Shown here in pieces: positions 34,608 to 38,743 of a stretch of DNA of 64,000 nt. The notes below the pieces were generated by a model. The model was not told the origin of the DNA. It did no database searches and worked only from the letters and a program-made list of their open reading frames with translations. The stretch is from a virus (taxonomy: Duplodnaviria; Caudoviricetes), in the IMG/VR virus record IMGVR_UViG_3300029288_000066, positions 128,001 through 192,000 of that record; one strand, given 5' to 3'. Positions within the stretch are counted from its first letter, which is position 1; each line of letters starts with the position of its first letter. Made by a program: the position numbers and the translations under genes.

Positions 34608-35555
34608 TTAATTGATTATAAATTTAGCATCTCCCTTTAATGTTCTCAGTATATATATTCCAGGCTTCATATTGCTTACATCAACTTTATTCCCAACTCC
34701 TTTAATTACTTCTTCTCCAGAAATTGAAAATACTGAAAAAGACGTTTTCTCTGAAATATATAAACAAGTTGTTACAGGGTTAGGATAAATTTTAAAAGTT
34801 GTTTTATTTGGCACACTTTCAACATAAACCCCATCTATAACTACTGTTACTTTATTGGATGACTGCCAACGTTCATGTATACAAGTATCCAACATTAAAT
34901 TGGTAACATATACAATTTTTGCCTGTATACTATAATCACCACTTGCGTATGCTATAAATGATGTATCTGTACCTGTATGAATTAATAACCCATCAAGATA
35001 CCAATATACAGAATCACAGCGTGCACTTGTTCCACCTCCTGAAACATTTACATATATACTAAAGTCAGCAAGAGTTAATGTGTCAGTTTGACTTTTAGAG
35101 CTTCCCCCTAACAACAAAGAGGGGGGTAAAAATTTTGGATAAACAACAGCATATTCAACATCAGCTCCTACAATATATGCAGTTATGGTAATTGGATTCC
35201 CTATAAAAGTTGATGTGTTTGATGGTAGAATATAAGCTATTGTATCGCTATACCAAATTGTATCATTTGTATATGGTGGATTTTGATTATCAATTATCCA
35301 ATAATCCACATTAACCACATCAGATGAGTCATCAAGAAGTTTTGCATAAATTGTATCTCCTCCAACTCCAGAAATACTTGGACTTCTATAATTCGTGTTT
35401 GAGTGCGGGATTGCAATAGGCTGAAGTCCTGACACCCAACTTCCACTGTCATTTAAAAAGGAAATTTCATAATTCTGCGCACTCACTCCTCCGCAAAAGA
35501 TAAGAACCATTGCAATAAGGATAATAAAACTTTTTAACATTCTTTTCGTTTTCAT
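34608..35555 (-). CDS. Secreted protein with T9SS type A C-terminal sorting domain
   Basis: Signal peptide ending AQ; KIYPNPV...GIYIL...KFI. Confidence 0.8.
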   Translation of the reverse strand: MKTKRMLKSFIILIAMVLIFCGGVSAQNYEISFLNDSGSWVSGLQPIAIPHSNTNYRSPSISGVGGDTIYAKLLDDSSDVVNVDYWIIDNQNPPYTNDTIWYSDTIAYILPSNTSTFIGNPITITAYIVGADVEYAVVYPKFLPPSLLLGGSSKSQTDTLTLADFSIYVNVSGGGTSARCDSVYWYLDGLLIHTGTDTSFIAYASGDYSIQAKIVYVTNLMLDTCIHERWQSSNKVTVVIDGVYVESVPNKTTFKIYPNPVTTCLYISEKTSFSVFSISGEEVIKGVGNKVDVSNMKPGIYILRTLKGDAKFIIN

Positions 35556-35833: not shown

Positions 35834-36515
35834 TTAAATATGCAATAATTTCAGATTCCCTTTAAAAACTTGTTTCAGACTTGTCCTTTTACCTGTTACA
35901 TGGTCAACAATTAAGTCACTTTTAAATGTATAAGTCCTTCTTTTCTCTCCCCTGGAGCCAGAACCTATTTGCTTTCTTCTTCCTTCTACTTCTTCTCCAA
36001 TTACACCAGTGCGATAAAATTCATTAACACGTCTATTCAATTCTTTTATTGCTTCGTCTTTATTCTGGTATTGATTACGACCATCACGTACTACTTTAAT
36101 TTTAGTGGCATAATGAGTAACGATAACGCAAGAATCCGTGGTATTTTTGTGTTGCCCCCCGTTTCCGCTTCCTCTCGTTGTCTCCAAACGATATTCATCA
36201 GGATATAAATTTATTTCCTTATAATTGCTTTCTTCTAAAATTGCAACTGTAACTGAACTTGTATGAACTCTACCTTTTGATTCTGTGGGAGGAACCCTGC
36301 TGAATGTGTGTCCCCCAGCTTCTTGTAGAAAATAATTTTTTACGTTAGCGCCGTCAAAGACAAATGGAAATATATCCTTCTCTCTCTTCTAATATTGAGA
36401 AGGAAAAATTTTCAACTCTGGCCGCTTTCTTATAGACATTGGCCAAATCTCTTGCAAGAAGTTTGGAATCCATTCCGCCTTCTGCACTTCTAATTTCAAC
36501 AATTACTTTTTCCAT
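35834..36515 (-). CDS. Class I peptide release factor homolog lacking domain 1, RF1-type PxT motif, split by CTT-TGA-C +1 frameshift
   Basis: EIRSAEGG (frame 0); EAGGH..RVPPTESKGRVHTS and GSGNGGQH (+1 frame); CTTTGAC at 36353-36359. Confidence 0.85.
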
Positions 36516-36847: not shown

Positions 36848-38743
36848 ATGATTAATAAAAACAACATGAAGAAACTATTTCTTATACTAGCTTTTTTAGC
36901 ACTCAACGTACTTTCTGTATTTTCTCAAGGTATAGACTGTGCAAGTTCTGACCCCTTCTGCACGGGAACTTCTTATAATTTTCCTGCAAGCACCAATGTA
37001 GCCGATATGGGCACTGTCGGCTGCTTATATACCACGCCAAACCCCGCATTCTATTATTTACAGATAGACCAGTCTGGTTCCATTGACATTACGATGCAGA
37101 GCACCCCGCTTGTTGATATTGACTTTATTTGTTGGGGTCCTTTCCCAAGCTTGGTTGCAGCATGCGCCTCTAATTTAATGACAAATTCTGGAGTTGATTG
37201 TAGTTATTCAACTGCGGCTACTGAAATATGTAATATTCCAAATGCAATATCTGGAGAGGTATATATATTGTTAATTACCAACTATTCAAATACTGTATGT
37301 AACATAGACTTTTCACAAACAGGAGGAACTGGAACCACAGACTGCAGCATTATGTGTTCTAGTCTTTCAAATAATGGTCCTCTTTGTGTTGGACAAACTT
37401 TAAATCTCACATCTACCACAGTTTCAGGAGCAACATATGCATGGACAGGTCCTAATGGGTTCACATCTAATCTTCAAAATCCAACCATATCTTCAGTTGT
37501 GGCTGCAAACGCAGGTGTTTATTCTTGTATTGTAACGGTAAATGGAAATTCTAGCCAACCTTGTACAACAACGGTTGTGGTCAATTTGCCTCCCCTTGTA
37601 ACAGTTAACAGCCCAACAATTTGCGAAGGAGATGATACCGCTTTAACCGCAGGTGGAGCTTCAACATATGTTTGGAGTACTGGAGCGGTAATAAATCCTA
37701 TAACAGTAAATCCACCATCATCAACTTCTTATACAGTTATTGGTACTGATGCAAATGGATGTAAAGACACCACTATTAGTAATGTCACGGTTAATCCGAA
37801 TCCAATTGTAACTGTTAATAGTGCCACAATATGCCAGGGAGAAACACAAATAATAACTGCGAACGGAGCAATATCATACGTATGGGACAATGGTCAAAAT
37901 ATTAATCCTATAAGTGTAACACCAAACACAACTACATCATATACTGTTACTGGAACATCACTTGGTTGTACAGGAACAGCTGTTTCAACAATTACAGTCA
38001 ATCCAAACCCAATAGTAGATATTAACGATACAACAACTTGTTCTGGAATACCAGTTATTCTTACCGCAACTGGCGGAGACACGTATGAATGGAGTAATGG
38101 AAGTCTGTCAAATCAAATATCCGTTAATCCACAATCAACATCTACATACACAGTAACTGCAACCATGAATGGGTGTACTGGAACCGCAATAGGAACAGTC
38201 ACAATTAATGCAACTCCAACAGCTGAGTTTACTGTATATCCAAGCAACATCATACTTAATCAAGGAACATTTGAATTTACAGATGTATCATTAAATGCAA
38301 GCACATGGAGTTGGGATTTTGGAAATGGACAGGTTTCGAATCAGCAATCTCCTTCTTATGGGGGATATACATCCGAGGGAAGCTATCTTGTTTCATTAAC
38401 TGTTACAAACGGAATATGTTCTGATAGTATTGAGCATATGGTTTATGTTGGGGATGTTTATTATTTTTGGGTGCCAAATACGTTCACCCCAAATGGAGAC
38501 GGACACAACGATGTATTTATACCGACGGCATACAATATTGACCTTAACCAATTCTCTATGACAATATACAACAGATGGGGAGAAGAGCTCTATAAAACAT
38601 GTGACATAAGCAAACCGTGGGATGGGAAAAACTTGAAGACAAACTTGGTTTATCCACAGGGAGTTTACTGTTATATTATTTATTTTGTCGGAAATGATAA
38701 CAAGAAACATATCGTTGACGGAAGGATAACTTTGTTACAATAA
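36848..38743 (+). CDS. Secreted PKD/Ig-repeat protein with T9SS type B (gliding-motility) C-terminal domain
   Basis: VPNTFTPNGDGHND...IYNRWGE...WDG...GVY; PKD WDFG. Confidence 0.85.
   Translation: MINKNNMKKLFLILAFLALNVLSVFSQGIDCASSDPFCTGTSYNFPASTNVADMGTVGCLYTTPNPAFYYLQIDQSGSIDITMQSTPLVDIDFICWGPFPSLVAACASNLMTNSGVDCSYSTAATEICNIPNAISGEVYILLITNYSNTVCNIDFSQTGGTGTTDCSIMCSSLSNNGPLCVGQTLNLTSTTVSGATYAWTGPNGFTSNLQNPTISSVVAANAGVYSCIVTVNGNSSQPCTTTVVVNLPPLVTVNSPTICEGDDTALTAGGASTYVWSTGAVINPITVNPPSSTSYTVIGTDANGCKDTTISNVTVNPNPIVTVNSATICQGETQIITANGAISYVWDNGQNINPISVTPNTTTSYTVTGTSLGCTGTAVSTITVNPNPIVDINDTTTCSGIPVILTATGGDTYEWSNGSLSNQISVNPQSTSTYTVTATMNGCTGTAIGTVTINATPTAEFTVYPSNIILNQGTFEFTDVSLNASTWSWDFGNGQVSNQQSPSYGGYTSEGSYLVSLTVTNGICSDSIEHMVYVGDVYYFWVPNTFTPNGDGHNDVFIPTAYNIDLNQFSMTIYNRWGEELYKTCDISKPWDGKNLKTNLVYPQGVYCYIIYFVGNDNKKHIVDGRITLLQ

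Follow-up and report, generated by a model that had tools for sequence, protein, structure and literature searches.

Frameshifting by +1 at a shifty stop codon is the textbook means by which release factor 2 (RF2) regulates its own synthesis, and UGA is read by RF2 only. The autoregulatory frameshift has been shown for prfB, not for prfA, and TAG is never the premature stop in the prfB motif (PMC12421855). Reviews and a 2025 survey of approximately 12,750 genomes know of no counterpart in an RF1 gene (PMC5009743, PMC12421855), and early in-frame UGA codons in RF2 genes are likewise unknown, as is a UAG/RF1 counterpart (PMC5009743). The Mimivirus release factor (gene described in PMC3521657) is cited as the one viral case with both frameshifting and readthrough (PMC5009743). 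Here we describe an interrupted release-factor gene in a 64,000-nt stretch of phage DNA (the window; positions 128,001-192,000 of IMGVR_UViG_3300029288_000066, a Caudoviricetes virus). It encodes an RF1-type factor behind the CUU UGA C core of prfB. In the most likely reading, which we hold with moderate confidence, the gene is expressed by programmed +1 frameshifting, and its yield rises as free host RF2 falls.

The gene starts with the ATG at 36515 on the minus strand, and its codon 53 is a CTT at 36359-36357. The end of this 53-codon frame reads ...ATT TGT CTT TGA CGG, and frame 0 continues beyond the TGA for only two codons before a TAA. From GAC (36355), the +1 frame stays open over 173 codons until it meets TAA at 35836-35834, and its earliest own start codon lies only at 36187. 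If CTT-T is read as a single step, the two frames join into a 226-aa protein that carries RVPPTE and GGQ, and the remainder of the gene contains no additional stops or shifts. Readthrough of the window TGA under genetic code 4 or 25 was ruled out by the frame-0 TAA two codons on. The elements of the gene are as follows (window coordinates):

35834-36515, minus strand: whole release-factor gene, 226-aa product after a single +1 shift; TAA stop at 35834-35836
36357-36515, minus strand: frame-0 part, codons 1-53 (MEKV...ISICL); first strand and helix alpha-5 of RF1 domain 2
36360-36362, minus strand: E-site codon TGT ahead of CTT
36353-36359, minus strand: shifty-stop heptamer CTT TGA C, with P-site CUU, frame-0 stop UGA (36354-36356) and +4 base C
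35837-36355, minus strand: +1-frame part, codons 54-226 (DGANV...LLHI); remaining domain 2, GGQ domain 3 and domain 4
Predicted peptide spanning the +1 junction (...ISICL-DGANVK...): EGYISICLDGANVK
36284-36292, minus strand: PPT tripeptide (PxT-type stop-codon "anticodon") in RVPPTESKGRVHTS; the usual form in the family
36152-36160, minus strand: GGQ peptidyl-tRNA hydrolysis motif, residues 119-121; invariant among 56 aligned family members

As in bacterial prfB, a short frame-0 open reading frame (ORF) comes first and the +1 frame supplies the remainder of a class-I factor, the CUU UGA C core is identical, and the yield would be set by the competition between release-factor binding and slippage. 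Unlike prfB, which encodes RF2, the phage gene is of the RF1 type, and its site lies at codon 53 in domain 2 rather than near codon 25 in domain 1. The phage site also lacks the Shine-Dalgarno (SD) sequence 3 nt upstream, and the product is not predicted to read the codon that gates it, so that there would be no direct self-regulation.

Judged by its sequence, the joined product is a bacterial class-I release factor of the RF1 type (PxT and GGQ) without domain 1, and UAA and UAG are the stops at which it is predicted to act. Both Pfam models exceeded their cut-offs (PF03462, PCRF, 67 bits; PF00472, RF-1, 73 bits). The PCRF match to the joined product spans model positions 101-194, whereas the separate frames match positions 97-146 and 157-194 only. 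The NCBIfam models ranked prfA (188 bits) above prfB (111), PrfH (65) and ArfB (20), all under their cut-offs because the first ~105 model positions are missing; the prfA match covers positions 105-332 of 347, and its 188 bits do not reach the equivalog cut-off of 400. In a search of the PDB, the best matches were RF1 of T. maritima and T. thermophilus (E 2e-39; RF1 139 bits, RF2 85 bits), and residues 86-313 of the T. maritima protein aligned unbroken over the shift junction. An AlphaFold2 model built from 56 family sequences had a pLDDT of 83 (39, a poor model, when no alignment was supplied). The junction falls within the strand formed by residues 48-55, where 10-residue blocks reached a pLDDT of 90-93. 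Foldseek placed ribosome-bound RF1 at the top (E 1e-23), RF2 below it and PrfH 50th (E 6e-13). The product also has the GG-x-D tip of helix alpha-5.

At its N terminus the product opens with the first strand of domain 2 of RF1. Domain 1 is the RF3/L11-side domain of these factors. It is unnecessary for codon recognition and hydrolysis and is required for RF3 coupling (PMC1586002). We found no domain-1 coding sequence anywhere in the 229-kb record, and the interrupted gene is the sole release-factor gene of the genome. An earlier note on this DNA had proposed that a +1 shift at CTT-TGA-C in codon 53 yields a 226-aa, RF1-type factor with PxT and GGQ that lacks domain 1. The reading frames and the RF1 match across the junction confirm this arrangement, and the profile and PDB scores, together with the content of the whole record, bear out the type of the factor and its missing domain. 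Within one clade of relatives, we observed two very different versions of the GGQ domain (L019, L144 and L146, TNGTGPGGQNRN...; the window, L130 and L135, TRGSGNGGQHKN...), a difference that indicates domain-level mosaicism among phage factors.

The heptamer by itself is not unusual: CTTTGAC occurs 11 times in the window, where 9.6 occurrences are expected, and the nonrandom feature is its position. Only 3 of 685 genomic CTT-T-stop sites link at least 40 upstream codons to at least 100 +1 codons, and among these three only the release-factor site unites two halves of one homologous protein. A separate ATC CTT TGA C at 116953 of G000 (plus strand), 11 kb before the start of the window, links 84 upstream codons to 105 +1 codons; it lies antisense to a tRNA array in low-complexity sequence and is probably due to chance.

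Homologue searches in IMG/VR and JGI metagenomes yielded 55 related loci, and 16 other distinct homologues, from independent samples, need a +1 shift at exactly the same codon. We aligned the site in 16 distinct 64-mers (15 of those homologues and the window). CTT-T and the CGG after the stop were invariant, while nearby synonymous positions varied freely; variation at the Gly codon that follows the shift falls on its third position in the +1 frame. The E-site codon is TGT in 14 of the 16, and the homologues show TGT, TGC or TAT followed by CTT TAG CGG. Pairwise dN/dS was 0.14-0.36 over the 53 frame-0 codons and 0.06-0.47 over the first 45 +1 codons, and for the gene set against its relatives the values were 0.14-0.33 in the frame-0 part and 0.12-0.47 in the +1 part; both halves, each in its own frame, show purifying selection. 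Because the same +1 shift is needed at the same codon in 16 homologues, both halves are under selection, and the junction lies inside a confidently modeled beta-strand, we conclude that the shift is real and not an indel.

An SD-like stimulator 3 nt upstream of CUU is absent; the sequence there is TCC ATT TGT, and the nearest GAAGGA ends 15 nt upstream, within conserved codons. We found no conserved RNA structure around the shift site. That the stimulator is off its canonical spacing had already been remarked in the earlier note, and it is no obstacle in the likely host. Genes near the release factor (window 34608-35555, minus strand, and 36848-38743, plus strand) encode proteins with PKD/Ig domains and with Por_Secre_tail and CHU_C tails, which are sorting domains of type IX secretion; these sorting domains point to a host among the Bacteroidota. 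In Bacteroidia the anti-SD sequence is sequestered, prfB of F. johnsoniae shifts at ~7% without SD pairing, and an SD-less site equals the native one (Naeem et al., 2024, PMC10798248). Since prfB shifts there without an SD, the bare heptamer should suffice. The two cases share the likely host phylum and a shifty stop that acts alone, but the Bacteroidia gene is the host's own RF2 gene, whereas here the gene belongs to a phage and encodes the other type of factor.

The stop codon of the site distinguishes the window from its relatives. The gate stop at codon ~53 is TAG in all 16 homologues and TGA only in the window, and when IMG/VR was scanned with a pattern open to TAG, TGA, TAA or TGG, all of the release-factor sites recovered carried TAG. 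Maximum-likelihood phylogeny placed the window together with five CTT TAG C sequences in a well-supported clade (100/97, then 96/92). Because the window nests within a TAG clade, its TGA is derived, and it is so far unique at codon 53. The refuting outcome named in the earlier note, uninterrupted homologues with no conserved site, was not observed: CTT-T, a stop and CGG lie at the same codon in 16 other genes, where the stop is TAG. The likeness to prfB that the earlier note had drawn holds for the CUU-UGA-C core of the window; at this codon every other homologue has TAG.

The nearest relative, P0004, a protein encoded in an ENA assembly, matches residues 67 to 226 of the window product without a difference, and after the shift site P0004 reads ...VFSGAGVKKFFSNEV (...VFSGAG...), the TAG-type form. 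Of the 13 residues that directly follow the shift (window 36316-36355), 7 differ between the two proteins, a pattern suggestive of either a recombination boundary or locally accelerated change around the gate, and the N-terminal module of the window gene, including the shift site, looks like a derived or recombined patch. The recognition elements (helix alpha-5 tip, PPT loop and GRVHTS) are RF1-like and identical to those of the TAG-site relatives, and within them we saw no change of specificity accompanying the change from TAG to TGA. As all other homologues have TAG at codon 53, the ancestral logic at this codon was RF1-type self-regulation. With the specificity predicted for a PxT-type factor, direct autoregulation would apply in the TAG-site relatives and not in the window, where the gate is UGA.

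To place the site within the wider family, we used a profile search, from which 80 of 162 IMG/VR relatives were kept. An internal-stop gate is present in 77 of the 80, and three are uninterrupted. A +1 shift is required in 24; all 21 examined have CTT followed by a stop (14 TAG, 6 TGA, 1 TAA). Those at codon ~53 have TAG throughout. At the other site, the first along the gene, at approximately codon 37, the stop is TGA in six, TAG in three and TAA in one, and an SD-like GGAGG or GGGGG frequently precedes the site by 3 nt. The remaining 53 of the 80 carry one or two in-frame stops in two fixed regions (~codons 39-45 and 52); relatives with in-frame stops include L001-L014, L120-L131, L155-L177 and others. 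These stops are mostly TGA followed by C or A, with some TAG (the L010 group) and, in one metagenome copy (L153), TAA. One lineage (L138, L182) combines an in-frame TGA with a CTT TAG shift. The in-frame TGAs (class B) align with Cys codons of the frameshifted class.

Several explanations for the in-frame stops could be set aside. Selenocysteine is unlikely at the in-frame TGAs because TAG and TAA occur at the same codon, and stop-hopping was ruled out because the codons flanking the in-frame stops mismatch in most genes. No UGA-suppressor tRNA(UCA) was detected at the ARAGORN default threshold, and a lowered threshold gave only noise. Genome-wide recoding was ruled out as the cause because recoding of TGA or TAG barely alters ORF coverage (G000-G004). 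Where a single stop separates two ORFs of the same frame, it is nearly always TAA, and long ORFs end with all three stops, UAA accounting for 80-90% in these phages. The internal stops are gates specific to this gene. Public 225-aa gene calls show Trp at both gates, indicating that table 4 had been applied to short contigs.

Gated short factors also occur at greater distance. A GC-rich 485-kb huge phage (LR745208.1; L080 3001-3658) encodes a short RF1-like factor with a complete GGAGGGG-T-CTT-TGA-C cassette at codon 37 and without the PxT loop (RVQRTSNGRIHSS). Chromosomes of the myxobacteria Archangium, Pyxidicoccus and Minicystis (complete for Archangium gephyra and Minicystis rosea) and several metagenome-assembled genomes contain relatives in which the first site reads CTT TGA or CTT TAG; among them (L242, L246, L250 and others, from Archangium gephyra, Minicystis rosea and Pyxidicoccus) are domain-1-less RF1-like genes with CGG AGG ... 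CTT TAG/TGA. The class-I factor gene of Mimivirus and Megavirus (Jeudy et al., 2012, PMC3521657) resembles the phage family in being viral and in having internal stops that are passed by frameshifting and readthrough. Both devices occur in the phage family and the window copy uses the frameshift only, but the genes of the amoeba viruses are of the eukaryotic/archaeal eRF1 type and are not homologous. We found no paper that describes such an RF1-type switch or the gates of this family.

In the mechanism that we propose, the ribosome would read 53 codons and then pause, its peptidyl-tRNA-Leu paired with CUU and its A site holding UGA in a weak (UGA-C) context. Binding of RF2 would release a 53-aa dead-end peptide. 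If the A site stayed empty long enough, the tRNA would re-pair on UUU, GAC would be read next, and the full 226-aa factor would be made. Because RF2 alone reads UGA, the shifting fraction should rise as free RF2 falls, and more phage factor would be produced. By taking over termination at UAA, the phage factor could free RF2 for UGA, which would close an indirect feedback loop. The window copy is thus probably gated by host RF2 and not by its own product, and it is plausible, as it follows from the chemistry, that the site senses low host RF2. The shift efficiency, the codon specificity, the dependence on RF2 and the feedback loop are what we infer from this scheme. A phage tRNA-Leu(GAG) (10224-10309, minus strand) is a candidate decoder of the shifty CUU and may take part in the shift.

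Several observations weigh against gating by host RF2. TGA occurs at codon 53 in the window only, and the two-base difference from TAG rests on one assembly. Stops are swapped among TGA, TAG and TAA between close relatives (L152 TGA versus L153 TAA; L131 TGA versus L010 TAG; the window TGA versus L130 TAG), which argues against a strict meaning of stop identity. Instead of the canonical PAT or PVT, the tripeptide is PPT. In RF1-ribosome structures a Gln reads the third stop base, and this clade has Ser (HTFSR) at that position. Finally, an amber-suppressor tRNA in the same genome sits oddly with the supply of a UAG-reading factor.

The strongest competitor, to which we would give perhaps one chance in a handful, is that the identity of the stop is irrelevant, either because the site is a generic gate that holds a potentially toxic factor low or reports overall termination capacity, or because the factor reads all three stops and so regulates itself. 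All three stops do occur at the gates of the family, and the swaps between close relatives just listed, together with the tripeptide variants SPT and PPN, fit this explanation; over-expression of release factors is known to harm bacteria (PMC12421855). However, the recognition elements of the window factor remain those of RF1 and of its TAG-site relatives, we saw no correlation between the tripeptide variant and the stop type of the gate, and TAG is otherwise universal at the codon used in the window, which fits RF1-type self-regulation. The bolder form of this explanation, which we think rather doubtful, is that the short factors are a distinct class that reads all three stops and that all of the gates (UGA, UAG or UAA, passed by shift or by readthrough) are self-regulatory. 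The family would then be a virus-owned homeostat of total termination capacity, and the swap to UGA in the window would be a neutral or tuning change.

We consider it improbable that the product is instead a rescue or specialized factor like PrfH or ArfB, with the frameshift serving only to limit its dose. Like PrfH (RF-H), it lacks domain 1 and keeps GGQ, the PrfH and ArfB models do match it weakly, and the tmRNA and many tRNAs of the phage suggest translation repair. PrfH, however, differs in its recognition residues and always comes with a partner gene (RtcB) upstream, with no frameshift described (PMC1586002). The phage protein is far nearer to RF1 and scores 65.5 bits with the PrfH model (TIGR03072) against a cut-off of 166.65, in line with the low rank of PrfH in the structure search. 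Its PxT loop and GRxHTS stop-reading elements are kept and nearly invariant. No RtcB gene is present among the annotated adjacent genes; the upstream gene encodes a 72-aa CxxCxxCC protein, and the gene on the other side encodes a KTSC-domain protein. An assembly error, or a recent inactivating change that left a pseudogene in this phage, is very unlikely: the earlier note claimed other indels in the window, and the TGA is a singleton beside the cluster of changes relative to P0004, but the +1 shift recurs at the exact codon in independent samples, both halves show purifying selection with no other stops or shifts, and TAG has been replaced by TGA through substitution, leaving a shifty stop identical to the prfB core.

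The record of 228,886 bp (33% GC) carries a tmRNA and 53 tRNA genes, together with one amber-suppressor tRNA(CUA) located at 196604-196678 of G000, 4.6 kb past the end of the window. In many loci the release-factor gene is followed, 1-3 kb downstream, by an amber-suppressor tRNA that often sits beside tRNA-Cys (loci with an amber-suppressor tRNA are L001, L002, L006, L007, L008, L012, L016 and L018). Recoded phages likewise carry RF1 or RF2 genes, often near suppressor tRNAs, with RF1 accompanying TGA recoding and RF2 accompanying TAG recoding and with these "code change" genes in the standard code (Borges et al., bioRxiv 10.1101/2021.08.26.457843). Unlike those phages, the five genomes analyzed here are not recoded, and an interrupted RF1-type gene co-occurs with amber-suppressor tRNAs. 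RF1 and RF2 genes appear in the literature on huge and recoded phages, where no interruption is mentioned (PMC7162821, bioRxiv 10.1101/2021.08.26.457843, PMC13037316).

Other translation genes were noted in passing. tmRNA genes were found at L008 325-679, L012 720-1074, L015 1057-1430 and G000 84078-84424; in three homologue loci the tmRNA lies ~2 kb upstream of the release-factor gene. Two tRNA-like genes have eight-base anticodon loops (L013 1493-1569, ccta; G003 180238-180311, agac), and the former could read UAGG as a quadruplet.

For annotation, the consequence is that gene callers split such genes or use table 4 and thereby put Trp at the gates. For the biology of release factors, the phage family would supply the missing RF1 counterpart (CUU-UAG-C) of RF2 self-regulation and also the long-hypothesized version with an in-frame stop, and in the window the wiring would be crossed, with the RF1-type factor placed behind a codon that only RF2 reads. 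The window offers a compact natural system in which to study how a virus monitors and tops up the termination capacity of its host, whether a release factor can work without domain 1 and RF3 coupling, and how far stop codons are interchangeable as sensors.
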